From positions 1 through 14,938 of the forward strand of contig JAEOTC010000243.1 of NCBI GenBank assembly GCA_016840035.1: DNA of 14,938 nt, in the 5' to 3' direction. The notes below the pieces were generated by a model that searched no databases, had not been told where the DNA came from, and saw nothing but the letters and a program-made list of their open reading frames with translations. Shown here one piece after another: positions 4,725 through 14,439 of the stretch (position 1 is its first letter; every line of letters starts with the position of its first letter). Source of the stretch: Candidatus Hodarchaeota archaeon. GTDB taxonomy: Archaea; Asgardarchaeota; Heimdallarchaeia; Hodarchaeales; Hodarchaeaceae. Both the position numbers and the translations under genes were made by a program.

Positions 4725-4928
4725 CTATTTGGCGGCTGCTAATTTAACGTCGTTTTCTTTTACAGTTTTACGACCAGAGTGTCGAGCAACTTCGACTGCG
4801 TATTTGGCCAGATCCATACTGTAATCAGTAAGGACTTCGTTTAGTCTGCTGATAGCTCCTGCGGAAACGCGATGAGCACCGGCTGTTCGAATTAATTTTT
4901 CAATTCTTGCGCTAGCAAATCCTGCCAT
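4725..4928 (-). CDS. Archaeal histone (HMf-like, tailless, 67 aa)
   Basis: MAGFASARIEKLIRTAGAHRVSAGA...ARHSGRKTVKENDVKLAAAK has the histone-fold RVS and RKTVxxxD motifs. Start set at ATG 4928 because SD AGGTGA (4941-4936) lies 7 nt upstream. Confidence 0.95.
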   Translation of the reverse strand: MAGFASARIEKLIRTAGAHRVSAGAISRLNEVLTDYSMDLAKYAVEVARHSGRKTVKENDVKLAAAK

Positions 4929-4956
4929 TTTATTTTCACCTTTTCTCAATAAAAAG

Positions 4957-5020: not shown

Positions 5021-5508
5021 TCGTTGCTCAGATACCACGTGATATAATTCCCACTCTAGATTCTATCATAACCACAATTCAAGCTTCACTATTCCAGCTT
5101 GATATAAGTACCACTTGACATATGCTATCAATCCTAGCTCATCATTTTGAATTGATGACCACCATAGGTATCTCTCATCATTTGAACCTAATTCTTTGAA
5201 AAGACGTATTTAATTAAAGGATATTATCAAAATCTCAGTTTAATTCGTTCAATAACCTCATCAAAATGTAGAGAAGATATAATTTTGCCAATAAGATACT
5301 GAAACATTTTTTTTCTCGTTTTTCTTTCAAAATTTATGTGAAAAATATAAAAATAAAGATGAGAATCGTTGTAACCAATTTATGAGTAGAGACTATTATT
5401 TTATCATTAAACATGGTAATTTTATATATTTCAGAGCTTCGGATATCATGACTCTTATTAATACCAACAATAAATTTCATGCAACTCAATGCTTTGGTAG
5501 GTAATTTT

Positions 5509-7989
5509 ATGAAGAAATTTAGATTATTTATAATTGCTTCAATTTTATTATTTTCAAATGTAATCATATTAGAGAATTTTAACGCACAAAATAATGGAAC
5601 AGTAGCGCAAAATGTAAATTATTCAGTAGAAAGTGATGAATATTTTGATTCTTTGTCACCTAATGATACTTGGATTGAAGCTACTATTGATAATGATAGT
5701 GATGGACAGATAGACTATCTAACTATTAAGTTAGGTATAACAACGACAGAATATCTTGATGTATATGGAATATTAAAAGACCCTATGGGGAATTGGATAG
5801 GTTACACCGTAAACGCAACAATAGAATCAACTGTTGAACAAGAAATAACCCTGTCTTTTTATGGAGGATCTATCTATGCATCAGGGTATAGTGGAGTTTA
5901 TCAACTGTTTTTGATGTTTTTAGATTCTTCGAGCTCTCCAAATGAGGTAGACGCACGGTTTGTATATTCAACGAATAGTTACACTTACATTCAGTTTGAA
6001 CGCCCCTCAGCAATTTTTAATGGGGCAACCGATTATGGTGTTGATACTGATAATGATACACTTTATAATGAAATTCATATTGATTTTCTTGTCAACGTTA
6101 GTGAGACAGGAACATATCTTGCTGCACTAATGCTTAATAGCAATGATCCATTTAATGAGTCATCAATGGATTATATAGGAATGGGTATGGCAGAGTTATC
6201 CCCTGGAGATAATCAGGTAATTACTGCTATCGTTCCTACAATGCCTTTCTTTGTGAATAAATTGAATGGTCCTTATTCATATGGTTTTGTTTACCTTATG
6301 AAACAGACTCCTGACTATGAAATGGCTTTTCAACAATTTAAGCAAGACTTTGGATATACACAGGCATATAACTATTCCCAATTTGATCTAGCCTCTGCTT
6401 ACTTCACAGGGGGATTACATGATCATCCACTAGATACAATGGGAGACTCTAAGTTTGAAGGAGTAGAGATCCTAGTAGAATTAAACGTGACAGATCCTGG
6501 ACGTTATACAACAGAGATATACTATCAAATTGGCACATTAACGAGATATATGGAAAATGATTCAATTTACTCTGCTGGTTTACACAATGTTTCATTATTT
6601 ATTTCTGACACAACGGTATATGCCAATAAATTAAATGAATCTATACGCATTGATAGACTAGCTCTCACTGACTCCAGCTACCAAATAATTCACACTTTAA
6701 ACCCAAATTATCGCTCACAAAATTATACATATACTGATTTCAACCCCCCAGGATTATTACTCACGGAGAGATACTTCGATCAGGGTGTAGATACTGATAA
6801 TGATTCGTACTTCAATGAACTTCAAATTTCGGTAGAGGTAAATGTAACGAAGAATGACACCTATTATTTCGATATCTCATTAGCTGAACCTGTAGGAATT
6901 TGGGAATATGACGGAATCTACTTAGATCCAGGTTTGCAGAACGTATCCTTCTCTTTCCCTATGAATAATCATTATCAGAAACAGATCAACACCTCGTTTG
7001 TTGTAGAACATTTATACATTTCAGTGGATACTTCGGGAATGTATCAGCAGATTCACTCTGCCACTGACGTATATACTACAAGAATCTACTATTTTAATGA
7101 ATTTGATCGACCAAATATTCTTTTCACAAATAGATTCTGGGATTATGCAGTTGACATCAATAATAATAGTCTCTATGATCTGTTAGTAATAGATGCTGAA
7201 GTGGAAGTATTCGAAGGAGGGGTTTTCAATTTCGGTGGTGATATTCATTCAGTGACTTCTCCAGTCACATACTACTTTTATACTAATCATCAAGAATACT
7301 TAGACATAGGGATACATAACATCTCTCTTATCTTTACTGATTTACATGCGCGACAGCTAGATTGCTCTTATCACCTTAACTACGCATATGTCCGAGATGA
7401 AGGCTACCAGCTCATAAATGAAGTTTATGATCCCTATGATACGGCATTTTACTACTATAATGACTTTGAACGTCCAATGGTATCTATGGAGTATGTCAAA
7501 GATTATGGCTACGCAGAGTCAGGCAGTACTGCATTTAATTTCATTATAGTAGAATTTGATATTACGTTTAACCAGCCCGTGAGTGACTATACAGTGGAAA
7601 TGACTGCTGAAGCGAATTCAATTAGTTATGGATTTGGAATGGGGATTTATGGAAGTTTTGCTGCTGGTACAACAAGAATCGATTTTGGAATCGATCCGAG
7701 TAGCATTACAGAGCCTACTTGGCAAACCTCATTCGATATTTCTGTGCGAGTATATGACAACAACATGCAGGTTATCTATGAAGTTCATCATATCAATACA
7801 ACACAGACCTATTACTCCCATGACTTTATTCAACAGACTACAACGACTACTACAACAGATTCTCCAGAACATTCAACTACATCAGACAAAGAAACCACTC
7901 CAAGACCTGGGTTAACACCTGGATACACAGTAGTACTGTCCCTGCTTGTAGTGATTGCTCTCCCAATTTTCAAAAAAAGAGGTAGATAA
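5509..7989 (+). CDS. Large surface glycoprotein with six ~120-aa Ig-like repeats (acidic DxDxD loops), Thr linker and PGY-type sorting tail
   Basis: Signal peptide MKKFRLFIIASILLFSNVII (ATG 5509, GGTAGGT upstream). Repeats start near D-x-G-V-D-T-D-N-D and end near Y-x-T-x-x-Y-x-Y-x-x-F-[DE]-x-P. Many N-x-S/T sequons. Tail TPGYTVVLSLLVVIALPIFKKRGR. Confidence 0.88.
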   Translation: MKKFRLFIIASILLFSNVIILENFNAQNNGTVAQNVNYSVESDEYFDSLSPNDTWIEATIDNDSDGQIDYLTIKLGITTTEYLDVYGILKDPMGNWIGYTVNATIESTVEQEITLSFYGGSIYASGYSGVYQLFLMFLDSSSSPNEVDARFVYSTNSYTYIQFERPSAIFNGATDYGVDTDNDTLYNEIHIDFLVNVSETGTYLAALMLNSNDPFNESSMDYIGMGMAELSPGDNQVITAIVPTMPFFVNKLNGPYSYGFVYLMKQTPDYEMAFQQFKQDFGYTQAYNYSQFDLASAYFTGGLHDHPLDTMGDSKFEGVEILVELNVTDPGRYTTEIYYQIGTLTRYMENDSIYSAGLHNVSLFISDTTVYANKLNESIRIDRLALTDSSYQIIHTLNPNYRSQNYTYTDFNPPGLLLTERYFDQGVDTDNDSYFNELQISVEVNVTKNDTYYFDISLAEPVGIWEYDGIYLDPGLQNVSFSFPMNNHYQKQINTSFVVEHLYISVDTSGMYQQIHSATDVYTTRIYYFNEFDRPNILFTNRFWDYAVDINNNSLYDLLVIDAEVEVFEGGVFNFGGDIHSVTSPVTYYFYTNHQEYLDIGIHNISLIFTDLHARQLDCSYHLNYAYVRDEGYQLINEVYDPYDTAFYYYNDFERPMVSMEYVKDYGYAESGSTAFNFIIVEFDITFNQPVSDYTVEMTAEANSISYGFGMGIYGSFAAGTTRIDFGIDPSSITEPTWQTSFDISVRVYDNNMQVIYEVHHINTTQTYYSHDFIQQTTTTTTTDSPEHSTTSDKETTPRPGLTPGYTVVLSLLVVIALPIFKKRGR

Positions 7990-9325
7990 TTCTACCTCCT
8001 CTTTTCCTCCGAAAGCTTGCCATGATTGGCAATGCAGCGAGAAGTGGAATGATATTCAATCCTGAAGCACTAGGTTTGGAAAAGATGATATTTCCTGTAT
8101 TTACCAGCCACATATCAGACTGACCTGCACCGTATGAATACGTCGAGCCAAGTAACAAAAAAGAATTATTCGATGTTTGAATTAAGCCACCTAAACTCTC
8201 TTCTTTAGAGCCCCCATAGGTTTTACTCCCTTGAAAATTACCTTTTGGGTCTGCTTTTACCAAATATATATCAATATCATTAGTAGTGTATGTTCTTCCA
8301 CCTAGGATAAACTCGCCATCGACAGTTTGTAAGAGAGATCGTATATATTCATCTCGTGAACCCCCATAGGCTTGACTCCATTGGTAGGCACCATATTCAT
8401 CGGTTTTCACTAACCAGAAATCCTCATCCCCAGAGGAGTTTGTTATTCCTCCGAGGGCAAATCCGCCATCAATTGTTTGAAGACAATCAAATGCAATTTC
8501 ATTTGCTTCTCCTCCGTACGTCTGGTTCCATTGTACAGTGCCATTTTCATCCGTTTTCACTAACCACATGTCTCCTGAACCAGCACCGTAGAAAGTAGTC
8601 CATCCTGCTAGTACGAATCCCCCATCTGGAGTTTGGAGAAGGTCATATGCCATATTAAGTCTTTCTTCTCCAAAGGTTTGCTTCCAAATAGCAGTGCCAT
8701 TTATATTGGTTTTTATTAACAACATACTTGAACACAAAGAACCAGCATTCTTGAGTATAATAACCGAGCTACCAATGACAATTTCTCCAGTTGAGGTTTG
8801 GATAATTGAAAGACTGAAAAGGGGAGAGTAGAAAGTCCAATCAATTCCACCATAAAATTGATTCCATTCGATTTTTCCATATTCATCGGTTTTTATTAAC
8901 CAAATTGCAGTATTCCATGAGCTATTTGAATAAGACTCGGTATAACCTGCCAGTAGAAATCCACCATCATCTGTTTGGAGTAAATCTGTCCCATAATCCA
9001 TCGAATCGCCCCCGTACGACTGATTCCATTCCGCTTGGCCATTGATATCGGTTTTCACCAACCACATATCCTGTGTCCCAGTTCCAAATGAATTTGTAGC
9101 CCCTGCAAGAGCGTATCCTCCATCTAGAGTCTGGATTATTGCAGAACCAAAATCAAAATCAAAACCTCCAAAAGTGGTACTCCACTCCCCCTCATTCGAG
9201 ATTTTGGAAAGAAGTTGGTTTCCATCAACTTTTTCAGTCCTAAAGACCTTTATACCTAAAAAAATCACTGGAATAAGCAAAAAAACGATAATACAAGTAG
9301 ATAATCCTTTAATTTTTCGATTCAT
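7970..9325 (-). CDS. Exported seven-repeat beta-propeller protein with C-terminal sorting tail
   Basis: N-terminal signal/anchor; seven ~50-aa repeats of W-x-x-T-Y-G-G...Q-T-x-D-G-G-[YF]-x-L-A-G-x-T...D-x-W-L-V-K-T-D-x-x-G; tail SASGLNIIPLLAALPIMASFRRKRGGR. Confidence 0.88.
   Translation of the reverse strand: MNRKIKGLSTCIIVFLLIPVIFLGIKVFRTEKVDGNQLLSKISNEGEWSTTFGGFDFDFGSAIIQTLDGGYALAGATNSFGTGTQDMWLVKTDINGQAEWNQSYGGDSMDYGTDLLQTDDGGFLLAGYTESYSNSSWNTAIWLIKTDEYGKIEWNQFYGGIDWTFYSPLFSLSIIQTSTGEIVIGSSVIILKNAGSLCSSMLLIKTNINGTAIWKQTFGEERLNMAYDLLQTPDGGFVLAGWTTFYGAGSGDMWLVKTDENGTVQWNQTYGGEANEIAFDCLQTIDGGFALGGITNSSGDEDFWLVKTDEYGAYQWSQAYGGSRDEYIRSLLQTVDGEFILGGRTYTTNDIDIYLVKADPKGNFQGSKTYGGSKEESLGGLIQTSNNSFLLLGSTYSYGAGQSDMWLVNTGNIIFSKPSASGLNIIPLLAALPIMASFRRKRGGRIIYLFF
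7972..8005. terminator. Candidate bidirectional terminator at convergent gene ends
   Basis: Stem GAGGTAGA (7979-7986) - TAAT - TCTACCTC (7991-7998), with A7 on the left and CTCTTTT on the right. Confidence 0.45.
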
Positions 9326-9416
9326 GTTTTATTCCAACTTATTTCTATACCACGAAATTAATCAAAATATGACTTTTCACTTTATTTTCTCAACGATCCT
9401 GATTTTTAACAACCAG

Positions 9417-9989
9417 TCACCAAAAGATCAACGCTCCTAAATATATCCCGCTAATGAAGAAAAAACCCAATAGGCTGTAGTAAACAATCCTAAACTTTGT
9501 ACTTGTCACAATCGGAAACCATTCTTCATCCGTCAGCTTTTTTAGTGCATTTACCACTCGACGTTCTGATGAAAACGTAATTAAGAGTTGAGCCAATGTA
9601 ACTAAAACAATTAGGAAAATAAGTATTAAGAAAACATAATTTGGATCTTCGATATTTCTAATACTTGAAAGCCACTGTAAAAGAAACCAACTAAGTATTA
9701 ATGCAATAATATTCTGGCCAAAAGTAAACAGTAAGACTTTTGTTCTTGAGAATGAAATATCCAATAAAGTCCTTTCTTCACCCATTGGTTTGAGTTTAAT
9801 TGTGCCCTCTACAATTTCATTGTCGGGATTCAGGTCAAAAATCAAACTCCAAATCGTCCCAATCGAGAAGTATACCTCTTTAGGTGTAAAATTAACTTTT
9901 ACCTTCTTAAATCGGTTAAAAAATTTATTTAATTTGGATTCTACCTCATTTGAGGTGACTTCGAAATTAATCTGTACCAAATTCTTCAC
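9417..9989 (-). CDS. Hypothetical membrane protein (soluble N-terminal domain plus about 3 TM helices)
   Basis: 190-aa ORF with three hydrophobic segments; GAGGAG near the start (GTG 9989, or TTG 9980). Confidence 0.75.
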   Translation of the reverse strand: MKNLVQINFEVTSNEVESKLNKFFNRFKKVKVNFTPKEVYFSIGTIWSLIFDLNPDNEIVEGTIKLKPMGEERTLLDISFSRTKVLLFTFGQNIIALILSWFLLQWLSSIRNIEDPNYVFLILIFLIVLVTLAQLLITFSSERRVVNALKKLTDEEWFPIVTSTKFRIVYYSLLGFFFISGIYLGALIFW

Positions 9990-10081
9990 TCCTCATACTC
10001 GACATCGTTTGATGTAATAATTCGAATCTAGCACATTCAGCTATATATTGGTTTACTCTCTAATGATTCCTCTTTCTGGAA

Positions 10082-10785
10082 TTATTTTTTGGCACACGTT
10101 CTTACTTTTCTTCTATAGGCCAGGAGTATTAGAGTTATCCAACCAATTGCATCAAAACTCGTCATTAAATCATCTGTATCATCTGTAGAAGAAGTATAAT
10201 CTGTGGTAGAGGTCAAATTGAACGGAGTTGTGGAATAATAGACTAGTTCAGAAGGAGTGAAATATGATGAATAGTCGGCCCGAATATGATCATTTTTGTC
10301 AGACAAGGGTATAATGCTCGTATTCACAGACCTCTCTCTCTGTTATAACCTTAAATAACCTCCCTCATCATTCAGATCAAAAAGAGGTGATAAAACAAAT
10401 ATTTCCACGAAGCATTGGTCTAATTCACTTGTAACTATGTTAGACGAGTTACCCGTCAAAGGCAAGAGAAGAAAGATCCCTTAGAAGGGAGAGGTTTTGG
10501 TGTTGATGATATTAGATGAAAAGCTGGTTCAAGTAGTCCTAAAGGTCAGTACAGTTTTACTGGTTCTGATCAGCCGGATAGGGGATGTGTGACTCATCCC
10601 GTCGTGACTATAGAAGCTTCTTAGTTTTTGTTGTCCGACAAATTCAGTCATGAGTGTTAGTATTTCCTATTCCTGGATGTTCTAATATAAGTACGACCAA
10701 AGCTTCTTCCACCTTTATTGATGGAGACACAATACTAAATACTATGACCATAAAAAAAAGTCAGTGAGAATTTACCTTTCTTCAT
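10082..10785 (-). pseudogene. Decayed gene for an exported protein with sorting tail
   Basis: SD AGGTGA (10800-10795) and ATG 10785. Removing one T from the T8 run (10752-10759) gives signal peptide MKKGKFSLTFFMVIVFSIVSPSIKVEEA. The middle has several in-frame stops. The 3' remnant is the 81-aa ORF ending in a Thr/Asp linker + TSFDAIGWITLILLAYRRKVR. Confidence 0.6.
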
Positions 10786-10850
10786 TGCTATAGATCACCT
10801 GAAAGTTAGAGAATAACTCTTTTGTTTAATTCGGATTAAAATCTCTTGGG

Positions 10851-10868
10851 ATTATAATAAAGGTTTAC
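10851..10868 (-). promoter_or_regulatory. BRE/TATA upstream of the decayed gene
   Basis: Minus strand reads GTAAACCTTTATTATAAT, about 70 nt upstream of ATG 10785. Confidence 0.5.
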
Positions 10869-11000
10869 ATTGGTGAAATTACCTGCCAATAAAGAAAAAT
10901 CCGAAGTAGATTAAGGTAGAACTAGAATAACCCTAAAATATTGGAAAAAGTAATGGAATATTCGAAGAAGTAGAAATTAGCAATATTCGTAGCCGGTTGC

Positions 11001-11146
11001 GATTTACACTTAAGCGAAAAAAATCTTTGTTTCCTTGAGTGTTAAACTCCCCAAGAACTGTTCAGTCACAAGTAAAATTTCATTCTACTGAAGATGACCA
11101 ACAGTTTGTTGCATGATTCAATAAATGAGGTTATTTCCTATGCAAC
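11001..11146 (+). promoter_or_regulatory. Putative structured 5' leader of the thermosome operon (three adjacent hairpins)
   Basis: Manual pairing: 11006-11014/11034-11042; 11056-11062/11100-11106 with inner stems; 11108-11114/11140-11146 covering the AUG. Confidence 0.5.
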
Positions 11147-12798
11147 TAGGTGGACAACCCGTTATAATTCTTAAAGAAGGAACTGAGCGATCACGCGGCC
11201 GTGATGCTCAGCGAAATAATATTCAGGCCGCCATAGCCGTGGCTGATGCCGTACGCAGTGCATTAGGTCCTCGGGGTATGGATAAGCTACTCGTTGATTC
11301 GTTAGGCGATGTTGTTATCACTAATGATGGCGCTACGATTCTTGACGAGATTGATGTTCAACATCCTGCAGCTAAGATGCTTGTACAAGTCGCAAAAGTA
11401 CAGGATCAAGAAGTAGGCGATGGAACGACCACATCAGTAATCGTTGCTGGAGAATTACTTAAACGAGCTGAAAAATTGCTTGATCAGAAAATTCATCCTA
11501 CGGTTATCATTGGTGGTTTCAAACTTGCCTCTGACAAATGTACTGAGATCTTGATGGACATTGCTAATAAAGTAGAAGTTGATGATATCGAGAGTCTAAC
11601 TTCAATTGCAAGAACCTCTCTCAACTCTAAATCAATTGGTGGTGCCAAAGCTCTTCTCTCTGATATGGCTGTTACTGCTACAAAAGCAGTTATGGAGGAT
11701 GAAAAGGTCGACTTAGATATGATCTCTATCATCCAAAAACAAGGCAAGAGCTTAACCGATTCTGAACTCATTCAAGGCATTGTTATTGACAAAGAAGTTG
11801 TTAACAATCGTATGCCTTCATCTGTTGAGAATCCCAAAATCGCGCTGATTGATGTGGCATTAGAAATCAAGAAAACAGAATTTGATGCAAAAATCCGGAT
11901 TACTGAAGCTTCTATGATGGATGCTTTCCTTGATCAAGAACAAACCATGATTCAAGAGATGACTGATAAGATCAAAGCATCTGGTGCAACTACCGTTCTC
12001 TGTCAGAAAGGAATAGATGATCTAGCTCAACACTTCCTTGCAAAGGAGGGTATTTTAGCTGTTCGTCGAGTGAAGAAATCCGATATGGAGAAACTTGCTC
12101 GTGCTACTGGTGCTAAAGTGGTTACCAATCTTAAAGATCTTTCTAAAGCTGACTTAGGTTCCGCTGGAGTCATTGAAGAAGTTCAGATTGGTGATGAAAA
12201 ACTCATTTACGTGAGAAATTGCCCCAATCCTAAATCTGTCTCCATTGTTCTTCGTGGGGGTACCAAATACGTCACTGATGAAGCAGAACGGGCTTTACAC
12301 GATGCTTTATGTGTCGTTCGTGATGTTCTTGAAGATGGTTGGGCCGTTGCTGGTGCAGGTAGCCCTGAAATTGAACTCCATAAAGGTCTCAAAGAGTTTG
12401 CTGGAACTGTAAAGGGTCGTGAGCAAATGGCTGTTGATGCTTTTGCGGATGCAGTTGAAATTATTCCCCGAACCCTAGCTGAGAACGCAGGGCTTGACCC
12501 CATTGATGTTTTAGTTGAGCTTCGTGCTGCTCATGAAAAGGGCAAGACCAACATTGGTATCAATGTTGATACAGGAAAGAAAGTTGATGCTTTCAAAGCT
12601 GGCATTATTGAACCACTCCGTGTGAAACGCCAAGCACTTCGATCTGCTCGTGAAGCAGCAGAATTAATACTTCGAATTGATGATGTTATTCAGAGTAAGA
12701 GTATGGGTGGTGCTGGAGGTCCACCAGGCGGTATGCCCCCAGGTATGGGTGGCATGGGCGGAATGGGTGGCATGGGTGGTATGCCCCCAATGATGTAG
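11140..12798 (+). CDS. ths: Thermosome (group II chaperonin) subunit with GGM-repeat tail
   Basis: [53 protein letters not shown]; C-terminal GGM repeats. Start set at ATG 11140 with SD GAGGT at 11127-11131. Confidence 0.97.
12745..12780 (+). repeat. Coding 9-bp tandem repeat (ATGGGNGGN x4) encoding the MGG tail
   Basis: atgggtggc atgggcgga atgggtggc atgggtggt. Confidence 0.85.
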
Positions 12799-12810: not shown

Positions 12811-14439
12811 ATGAGTTTACAAGGAACACCCGTATTTATATTAAAAGACGATACCCAGCGCACAACTGGGAAAGATGCAGTTAGTAGCAATATTGCTGCA
12901 GCTCGTGTAATTTCTGAAGCAATTCGTTCAGCCCTTGGACCTAAAGGGATGGACAAAATGCTCCTAGATAATTTTGGTGATGTAGTTATCACTAACGATG
13001 GTGCAACCATTCTCAAAGAGATTGATATTGCCCATCCTATTGGTAAGATGATGGTTGAGCTTTCCAAGATTCAAGATCAGGAAGTTGGTGATGGGACAAC
13101 AAGTGTTGTGATTTTAGCAGGTGAATTACTCTCACAAGCTGCAGAGTTGATTTCTGGCGATAAAATTCATCCCACAATTCTAGTTGAAGGATATCGCTTA
13201 GCAACTGAAAAAGCAATTGAATTTCTAGATGAAATTGCAACTGAGGTCTCTGCTGACGATGATGTTCTCCTCAAAGAAATTGTCACTACTTCTATGGGTT
13301 CTAAAATTGTCTCTCGCTCAAGTGGTCTGCTTTCCTCCATAGTAATTGATGCTGTAAAAAGCATTGATACTGGTTCTGGTAGAATTGACATCGATGATAT
13401 TAAGGTTGAGAAGAAAGAAGGCGAAGATATTGAAGCAACTGTCCTTGTCAAAGGAATCGTTCTTGACAAAGAAGTTGTTCATGCTGGAATGCCTAAAAGT
13501 CTCGAAAACCCTAAGATTGCATTGATTACCGAAGCTTTTGAAGTTTCTAAGACAGAATTTGATTCTGAACTCAGTATCACCGATCCCACTAAAATTCAAG
13601 AGTTTTTGGATCGTGAAGCCTCAATGCTTCAAAAAATGGTTGATAAAGTTGTTGCTGCTGGAGCCAATGTCGTGATTGCCCAGAAGGGAATTGATGATGT
13701 TGCTCAACACCTCTTAGCAAAGCAGGATATTATGGCAATTCGTCGGGTGAAGAAATCCGATATTGAGAAACTAAGCAAAGCTACTGGCGCATCTATTGTC
13801 AATAATTTAAGTGATTTATCTGCTGACGATTTAGGTGCTGCTGGTAAAGTCTACGAAACCAAGATCGGCGATGACGATATGGTTTTTGTCGAAGATTGCC
13901 CTGAAGCAAAATCTGTCACTATTCTAATTCGTGGGGGTACTGAATTGGTTGTTGACGAAGCTGAGAGATCTATTCACGATGCTGTCTGTGTCGTGCGTAA
14001 TGTTCTTGAAGACAAAAAAGTAGTGGCTGGTGGTGGTGCTCCTGAAGCATATGTCAGTCGTAAACTACATAAATTTGCCGAATCCCTTGTCGGACGCGAA
14101 CAACTTGCTGTTCAGGCATTCGCCAATGCATTGGAAGTTATTCCCAGGACTCTTGCAGAAAATGCAGGTCTTGATCCCATTGACATCATTGTAGCTCTTC
14201 GTAATGAACATGAAACTGGTAATTTCAAAGCTGGTGTAGATGTTTTTGAAGGCAAAGTGAAAAACATGGATGGTGTTACTGAACCCCTACGTGTGAAAAC
14301 TCATGCTATTTCAGCTGCTAGTGAGAATGCTCAAATGATTTTGAGAATTGATGATATAATTTCCGCTAAAGCAGGTGAAGGTGGTCCTCCTGGCGGTCCA
14401 GGTGGTCCTGGAGGCATGGGTGGAGACGACTTCGATTAA
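12811..14439 (+). CDS. ths: Second thermosome (group II chaperonin) subunit with Gly/Pro and acidic tail
   Basis: [43 protein letters not shown]; starts 12 nt after subunit 1, with AGGAGG overlapping the upstream stop; tail GGPPGGPGGPGGMGGDDFD. Confidence 0.97.
   Translation: MSLQGTPVFILKDDTQRTTGKDAVSSNIAAARVISEAIRSALGPKGMDKMLLDNFGDVVITNDGATILKEIDIAHPIGKMMVELSKIQDQEVGDGTTSVVILAGELLSQAAELISGDKIHPTILVEGYRLATEKAIEFLDEIATEVSADDDVLLKEIVTTSMGSKIVSRSSGLLSSIVIDAVKSIDTGSGRIDIDDIKVEKKEGEDIEATVLVKGIVLDKEVVHAGMPKSLENPKIALITEAFEVSKTEFDSELSITDPTKIQEFLDREASMLQKMVDKVVAAGANVVIAQKGIDDVAQHLLAKQDIMAIRRVKKSDIEKLSKATGASIVNNLSDLSADDLGAAGKVYETKIGDDDMVFVEDCPEAKSVTILIRGGTELVVDEAERSIHDAVCVVRNVLEDKKVVAGGGAPEAYVSRKLHKFAESLVGREQLAVQAFANALEVIPRTLAENAGLDPIDIIVALRNEHETGNFKAGVDVFEGKVKNMDGVTEPLRVKTHAISAASENAQMILRIDDIISAKAGEGGPPGGPGGPGGMGGDDFD

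Follow-up and report, generated by a model that had tools for sequence, protein, structure and literature searches.

A predicted 5′ leader with a covarying hairpin precedes the thermosome operon in one genus of Hodarchaeales

RNA thermometers of the ROSE and fourU types (the latter exemplified by Salmonella agsA) lie in the 5′ leaders of heat-shock genes, in which several hairpins are formed and the last one covers part of the initiation region. The Shine-Dalgarno (SD) sequence of these elements forms one strand of a weak, imperfect stem, opposite either U(U/C)GCU (with a bulged G) or UUUU. The bacterial CIRCE/HrcA system places an inverted repeat between the promoter and the start codon of the chaperonin operon (groESL, dnaK); HrcA is bacterial, and CIRCE is believed to work at two levels, as a DNA operator and within the mRNA. 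In archaea, repressor sites such as those of Phr sit on the start site. The thermosome mRNA of Methanolobus psychrophilus (cpn60) has a long, structured 5′ UTR, in which the ribosome-binding region can be embedded, and which is cut by an endonuclease, typically 20–30 nt before the AUG, to give higher stability and translation (Qi et al. 2017, Nucleic Acids Res, PMC5499594). A designed RNA thermometer is functional in the SD-using archaeon Methanosarcina mazei (PMC11549558), and the mechanism is therefore feasible in archaea. Our literature searches found no natural archaeal RNA thermometer. Hodarchaeales is the Asgard order held closest to eukaryotes, and gene regulation in Asgard archaea is, to our knowledge, almost entirely uncharted.

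The DNA analysed here is a stretch of 14,938 nt (the window), which is contig C234 of a 4.3-Mb MAG. We estimate a probability of roughly 55% that positions 11037–11139 are a ~103-nt 5′ leader of the ths1–ths2 thermosome mRNA, consisting of a 5′ motif, the hairpin H2 and, in one sub-clade, the hairpin H3, with a post-transcriptional role. This leader resembles that of Methanolobus cpn60 in belonging to an archaeal thermosome mRNA, in being long and structured, and in the possible embedding of the ribosome-binding region, and we also count as a likeness that the Methanolobus leader affects mRNA stability and translation after transcription. The two differ in that they share no sequence or structural homology and come from a methanogen and an Asgard archaeon, respectively; moreover, cleavage sites have been mapped in the Methanolobus element and define it, whereas the Hodarchaeales leader is defined by conservation only. 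The thermosome-specific leader appears to be new; it was found neither in Rfam nor in the literature searched. Its features and those of the surrounding DNA are the following.

11003–11015, forward strand: TATA-like element TTTACACT (11003–11010) followed by CTTAAG; the best TTTAWAWA-like octamer in the window.
11006–11042, forward strand: inverted repeat H1, ACACTTAAG / CTTGAGTGT; a strong fold (z −4.06).
11035–11037, forward strand: predicted transcription start, from the TATA-to-motif spacing, which is constant across the genus, and from the conservation boundary at 11037.
11037–11052, forward strand: 5′-terminal motif GAGUGUUAAACUCCCC, found in nearly all members of the genus.
11037–11040 with 11046–11049, forward strand: mini-hairpin A of 4 bp (GAGU with ACUC), inside the 5′-terminal motif.
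11055–11107, forward strand: hairpin B, or H2, with an outer stem (11055–62/11100–07) and inner stems (11065–68/11095–98 and 11071–74/11086–89).
11108–11146, forward strand: H3 in the minimum free energy (MFE) fold, GUUGCAUG (11108–15) with UAUGCAAC (11139–46).
11126–11131, forward strand: Shine-Dalgarno sequence UGAGGU, 8 nt before the AUG.
11140–12798, forward strand: thermosome gene 1 (ths1), Pfam Cpn60_TCP1, E 1.7e-185.
12811–14439, forward strand: thermosome gene 2 (ths2), Pfam Cpn60_TCP1, E 2.6e-183.

The two tandem Cpn60_TCP1 genes confirmed the thermosome genes that an earlier note on this DNA, made from the letters alone, had recognized, and they presumably form an operon because ths2 begins only 12 nt downstream of ths1. 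Comparison of the leaders indicates that the true start of ths1 is ATG 11140 and not the in-frame ATG 11125 chosen by the ORF lister, which is missing in most relatives. GAGGU (11127–11131) and the AUG at 11140 lie exactly where the earlier note had put them, and GAGGU is present in 17 of the 18 genus leaders, with AAGGU in the remaining one (L019). UGAGGU is complementary to ...GGAUCACCUCA, the putative 16S 3′ end on contigs C47 and C188 of the same genome. These contigs (C47, reverse strand, ~958; C188, forward strand, ~37196) carry two near-identical stretches ending in ...GCGGATGGATCACCTCA, which look like the 3′ end of a 16S rRNA. An SD-like motif precedes ~13% of the long ORFs of this genome when a 5-mer is counted and ~23% when a 4-mer is counted; in Lokiarchaea, SD use has been reported to be rare (PMC12993045). 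A tRNA scan of the window gave no hit. For the comparative analysis, all 22 genomes of the genus in the collection used were searched, and the orthologous locus was obtained from 17 relatives; four metagenome contigs and six contigs reached through protein look-ups supplied extra members.

The earlier note had described three hairpins upstream of and across the ths1 start, and the MFE fold of 11001–11146 reproduced them base for base (H1, 11006–11042; H2, 11055–11107; H3, 11108–11146). The folding energy was −30.2 kcal/mol, as compared with −21.4 ± 3.4 for shuffled sequences (z −2.58; 2 of 200 shuffles as good). H1 was the main source of this excess, since it alone gave the z value of −4.06 listed above (0 of 200 shuffles as good), while H2 and H3 alone gave −0.86 and −1.19, respectively. 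For the predicted transcript (11037–11152), z was −1.34, with 19 of 200 shuffles as good. Folding better than shuffles, as the note had expected, was therefore found for the whole of 11001–11146 and only weakly for the predicted transcript, and the leader reading is weakened by this value as well as by the dependence of H3 on sequence context described below.

The position of the promoter bears on which hairpins belong to the mRNA. The TATA-like octamer of the window is centred 30 nt before G11037 and has the lowest score of the set (5 of 8); that of 23 relatives is centred 23–27 nt before the first G of the 5′ motif. In archaea, TATA boxes are reported at ~26–28 nt before the transcription start (PMC8553660). 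Because the TATA-to-motif distance matches this usual spacing, we infer a start at or near G11037: transcription most likely begins at, or within a few bases of, this position, from a TATA promoter that overlaps H1. The earlier note had named a start downstream of ~11110 as evidence against its proposal, and the predicted one near 11037 lies well upstream of that point. Transcription could alternatively begin further upstream and take in H1, since the TATA element of the window is weak and the DNA upstream has been replaced. The leader and gene of the window share 87–92% DNA similarity with the closest relatives; this similarity ends abruptly at 11037, and the 1.7 kb upstream of it gave no match to them. 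Synteny with the nearest relatives also ends exactly at this predicted start. The coincident breaks in homology and synteny mean that the thermosome promoter of this genome has been replaced.

The 5′ arm of H1 (11006–11014) coincides with the only TATA-like element of the window and, as homology stops at 11037, has no counterpart elsewhere; H1 thus joins a strand found in this genome alone to the ancestral GAGUGU, and an equivalent pairing was present in none of the relatives compared. Given the predicted start at ~G11037 from a promoter overlapping it, H1 is read as promoter DNA and not as RNA, and it is probably a DNA-level coincidence that spans the TATA box and the start site and lies outside the mRNA. 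The three-hairpin mRNA architecture of the earlier note consequently did not hold, with H1 unconserved and overlapping the predicted TATA box; of the conserved pairing in relatives that it had looked for, H2 and, within the sub-clade, H3 provided examples and H1 did not.

Across the genus, the locus has a common layout: TCCGG(A/T)A, the TATA-like octamer, a spacer of 19–23 nt, (U)GAGUnnAAACUCCC, a hairpin, a variable stretch, GAGGU, 7–8 nt and AUGCAAY. The conserved promoter block of this layout was not found anywhere in the window. TCCGG(A/T)A lies 8–17 nt upstream of the TATA-like element across the genus (e.g., in L010, L012, L018, L007 and L008); only its CCGG is seen in the window, at 10994–10997, and five genomes have the CCGG motif as the palindrome TTCCGGAA, a dyad of TTCnnGAA form like that of heat-shock elements. 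We regard TCCGG(A/T)A as a candidate transcription-factor site.

At the 5′ end of the predicted transcript, the distance from the 5′ motif to the AUG is 92–106 nt in most genus leaders. Within this motif, hairpin A shows a single compensatory variant (GAGG/CCUC; L007 and L008), and its pairing is broken in L013, L014, L015 and L019; its arms are invariant within the sub-clade of the window. With a single compensatory variant and several breaks, hairpin A may be conserved as a sequence rather than as a structure. Other readings of this region were tried and rejected. A leaderless mini-ORF at the predicted 5′ end (AUGAGU...) has AUG as its first codon in only about half of the leaders (UUG in the window, CCG in L003 and L004) and meets a stop at codon 3 in L013. 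A C/D-box or K-turn formed from the UGA...UGA flanks relies on a motif that is unconserved in the clade of the window and is lacking in L006, and an anti-SD role for ACUCCC would require pairing with GAGGU that is poor.

In 17 of the 18 genus leaders, a hairpin (H2) starts 0–4 nt after CUC, with loops of 4 to ~45 nt, and while this position is constant, the stems are unrelated in sequence between at least seven lineages. The variants are AACUGU.../...ACAGUU, CCUAAAUUC/GAAUUUGGG, GUUCUCC/GGAGAAC, CCUUAGUUU/AAACUAAGG, UCCCCU/AGGGGA, GGUUAUC/GAUAACC, GUUGUCA/UGACAAC and GUUACCA/UGGUAAC, and the replacement of GUUGUCA/UGACAAC by GUUACCA/UGGUAAC is observed. By script comparison, in-register changes were compensatory (AU, UA and GC interchanged; CG with UA; UG with UA). 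Among the eight closest sequences, 96.6% of the cells were paired, as compared with 27–66% when the partner was slid, and two pairs had changed on both sides. In most lineages, H2 folded more stably than its shuffles: the share of shuffles at least as stable was, lineage by lineage, 0.06, 0.19, 0.02, 0.00, 0.05 and 0.04; stability over shuffles was not seen in L019. RNAalifold predicted no structure on MAFFT alignments, which is explained by stems that cannot be aligned by sequence, and a second alignment misplaced L016; the structural comparison was therefore made by script. These results identify H2, one of the hairpins of the earlier note, as a hairpin kept by compensatory change across the genus and by its position in 17 of 18 leaders, and its G-U pairs and variable loop length argue for RNA rather than for a protein operator. 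A structure kept by compensatory substitution, as expected of a cis-regulatory leader, was thus found in H2; covariation is weak in hairpin A and cannot be demonstrated in H3, of which the 3′ arm is coding.

A covariance model of hairpins A and B (R1) detected a single copy in each of five relatives, invariably ahead of the thermosome operon, and no second copy in the genome of the window; R1 is too sequence-specific and scores the window's own clade poorly, at 10.7 bits. Regular-expression scans of the genome for the 5′ motif and for the CCGG motif gave chance hits only, and the combined pattern of the two is unique to the thermosome locus in the genome. The long leader is specific to the genus, because other families of the class have their thermosome promoter just 45–60 nt before the ATG, with leaders of ~20–35 nt. 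Nine loci from such families (L020, L021, L022, L026, L027, L028, L064, L074 and L101) share a promoter-like block, (T)ATA(A/T)ATATCA(A/G)T; from its position 45–60 nt before the ATG, the other Heimdall-group families would have short leaders, perhaps with a conserved element right after the TATA box.

For the leader observed here in its anatomy, conservation, covariation and single-copy status, and with the start site proposed above, the most likely role is post-transcriptional control: 5′-end stability, processing or protein recognition through hairpins A and B, and gating of initiation through H3. The 5′ module would protect or mark the 5′ end of this abundant mRNA, and could do so through stability, through recognition by a protein or nuclease, or through processing of the Methanolobus type. 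H3 would set or gate the access of the small ribosomal subunit to the AUG, with the SD displayed in a loop. In Hodarchaeales, this covarying leader of the main chaperonin operon, with its authentic SD and stem-locked AUG, offers a concrete candidate for post-transcriptional control. Its reach is limited to the one genus in which the leader occurs.

H3 differs from H2 in that its conservation is confined to a small group. In the gene tree, the window forms one sub-clade with L003–L006, L124 and L125 (support 93/92); the branches of L124 and L125 have lengths of 0.35 and 0.26 changes per site in the coding sequence. When six leaders of the sub-clade were aligned, 41 of 103 columns were invariant, and the longest invariant run was 11108–11114, the GUUGCAU arm, followed by CAGUU at the base of H2, the SD and both arms of hairpin A. 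As 20% of the remaining columns are invariant, a seven-base run would arise by chance with a probability of ~1e-3, a rough estimate. The alignment indicates that the upstream arm of H3 is under purifying selection in the sub-clade of the window. The arm is conserved only in this sub-clade of ~8 lineages, and in the other members of the genus the AUG is open. The deep members L124, L125, L127 and L129 retain the arm and differ at the stem ends only: L127 has AUUGCAU, L129 and L130 have GUUGCAA, and the 6-bp core is kept in both variants. Among the extra sub-clade sequences from metagenomes and contig look-ups, covariation of H3 was sought and only one-sided changes at the stem ends were found.

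The effect of H3 on the start region was evaluated from predicted pairing probabilities. The inner stem, AAUAA/UUAUU, is weak and leaves AUGAGG in a six-base apical loop. This stem had been thought to cap the SD, but GAGG lies in the loop, with P(unpaired) of 0.60 versus 0.22 in shuffles. In short contexts, P(unpaired) of AUG+4 in the window was 0.07–0.10 at 25°C, below 98 of 100 shuffles, and the accessibility of the ths1 AUG was within the lowest 2.3% of 261 SD-led ORFs in the same genome; the ths2 start codon was not occluded (0.565 unpaired) and was ordinary within the genome. When 60 nt of coding sequence were added, H3 was displaced in the ensemble and the AUG became 0.77 unpaired, so that the start codon is buried, as the earlier note had it, in the short contexts but not in the longer one. 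The AUG was occluded in L002–L006 (P(unpaired) 0.06–0.33 at 25°C, with 0.02–0.29 of shuffles as low), and also in L124 and L125. In the other 13 of the 18 genus leaders, occlusion was no different from shuffles, and the AUG was mostly 0.6–0.94 unpaired.

The 3′ arm of H3 consists of codons 1–3, which are coding and invariant, and the pairing is consequently indistinguishable from a sequence-specific site. The pairing may thus be incidental: the invariant CAGUU-N-GUUGCAU would be kept because a protein or nuclease binds or cleaves it, or because it forms the base of H2, and the match to AUGCAAC would be non-regulatory. In favour of this, the 3′ arm is fixed by coding and covariation is therefore absent, and the arm of L125 is predicted to fold into a different, local hairpin. 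The loss of H3 from the ensemble with more coding sequence points the same way, as do the degenerate versions in the rest of the genus (UGUUAUAU, UGUCAUGU), which pair poorly, and the position of the block 20–30 nt before the AUG, like the processing sites of the Methanolobus thermosome (PMC5499594). However, chance would rarely give a perfect complement of 7–8 nt to the region of the start codon, the variants alter terminal pairs only and keep the 6-bp core, and the accessibility of the AUG is below that of 95–98% of shuffles for L002, L004 and L005. We consider an incidental H3 unlikely.

A second alternative is control at the DNA level, in which a heat-shock transcription factor would bind the dyads as operators, with GAGT-N5-ACTC on the start site and the H1 dyad reaching from the TATA box to the start. 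Such operators would account for the fixed spacing, high sequence conservation and little covariation of the GAGT/ACTC dyad at the predicted start, for TCCGG(A/T)A, the other conserved motif, which precedes the TATA element (palindromic in five relatives, as noted above), and for the strength of the H1 dyad. H2, however, cannot be an operator, with its unrelated stems, arms 4–45 nt apart and G-U pairs, which in DNA would not match; H1 occurs in this genome only; the motif is single-copy, with no regulon visible; and no conserved regulator gene was found beside the operon, whose upstream neighbours vary between genomes. The likeness to CIRCE lies in an inverted repeat placed after the promoter and before the start codon of a chaperonin operon, whereas the Hodarchaeales dyad is GAGT-N5-ACTC and its covarying hairpin has no fixed sequence; the consensus TTAGCACTC-N9-GAGTGCTAA had no match with three or fewer mismatches in the window. 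DNA-level control as an explanation of the locus is quite improbable in our judgement; for hairpin A, it can be compatible with the leader reading.

The temperature gating proposed in the earlier note is reduced by these results to H3 alone: GUUGCAU/AUGCAAC would block the AUG in the cold, and heat would melt it and raise thermosome translation. H3 does pair the AUG, which is unusually inaccessible among the genes of this genome, its arm is conserved in the sub-clade, the thermosome is a classic heat-shock gene, the stem-end changes in L127, L129 and L130 weaken H3 without removing it, and the designed thermometer of M. mazei (PMC11549558) shows that such control can work in an SD-using archaeon. 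On the other hand, the predicted ΔG of H3 is −11.0 kcal/mol at 25°C and −7.8 kcal/mol at 37°C, and the stem is predicted to be still closed at 60–70°C. The accessibility of the AUG in the window (leader + 30 nt) is 0.06 at 10°C and still no more than 0.26 at 50°C, and in L003, L004, L005 and L124 it falls with temperature. Occlusion of the SD or AUG was also not conserved among the orthologous leaders, being found for the AUG in the sub-clade of the window only and not in 13 of 18 genus members. Unlike ROSE and fourU elements, H3 leaves the SD unpaired in a loop, holds the AUG in a perfect stem of 8 bp that lacks the mismatches usual in thermometers, and is predicted to melt far above the physiological range. 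The ROSE analogy did not hold: U(U/C)GCU with a bulged G opposing the SD is absent in H3, the AAUAA/UUAUU stretches pair with each other and not with GAGG as a fourU element would, no Rfam family matched the whole window at the gathering threshold, and no Rfam thermometer family matched 10300–11200 even at E ≤ 5. The predicted melting is not thermometer-like. We hold a thermometer to be highly unlikely, with temperature gating left unsupported rather than refuted.

It is likewise very doubtful that H3 is the first natural archaeal RNA thermometer or a general initiation gate, and that hairpins A and B are a new thermosome-specific element that links the gate with mRNA stability or chaperonin feedback. 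Were a gate of this kind present, chaperonin translation would depend on temperature or on a helicase or chaperone. A temperature-responsive H3 would be the first natural RNA thermometer in archaea; an H3 that does not respond to temperature would still leave a defined case for mRNA 5′-end protection or processing and for SD-dependent initiation in the archaea closest to eukaryotes.

A different arrangement of the start region was observed in L009 (genome G009), which is without the GUUGCAU arm. Here, a hairpin AAUUGC...GCAAUU, within the 35 nt before and the 8 nt after the thermosome ATG, encloses both the SD and the AUG, and it could be an independent way of structuring this region.

The DNA upstream of the operon also differs from that of the nearest relatives. 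A histone gene lies 0.3–1.3 kb upstream of the operon in L003 and G010, and in G010 it is the immediate neighbour of the thermosome promoter. The window has its histone gene at 4725–4949 on the reverse strand, and ~6 kb of unrelated DNA (5161–11036), including an IS remnant, lies between it and the operon. The remnant, at 10379–10667 on the forward strand, is a repeat with copies on contigs C292, C57, C9 and C121 (68–80% identity), and no tnpB ORF is found next to it in the window. The C292 copy overlaps the last ~100 nt of a gene for a 419-aa TnpB (OrfB_IS605 and Cas12f1-like TNB domains) and 42 nt downstream of it. From this overlap with the 3′ end of tnpB, 10379–10667 resembles what an IS200/IS605 element would leave behind as a solo right end or omega-RNA.
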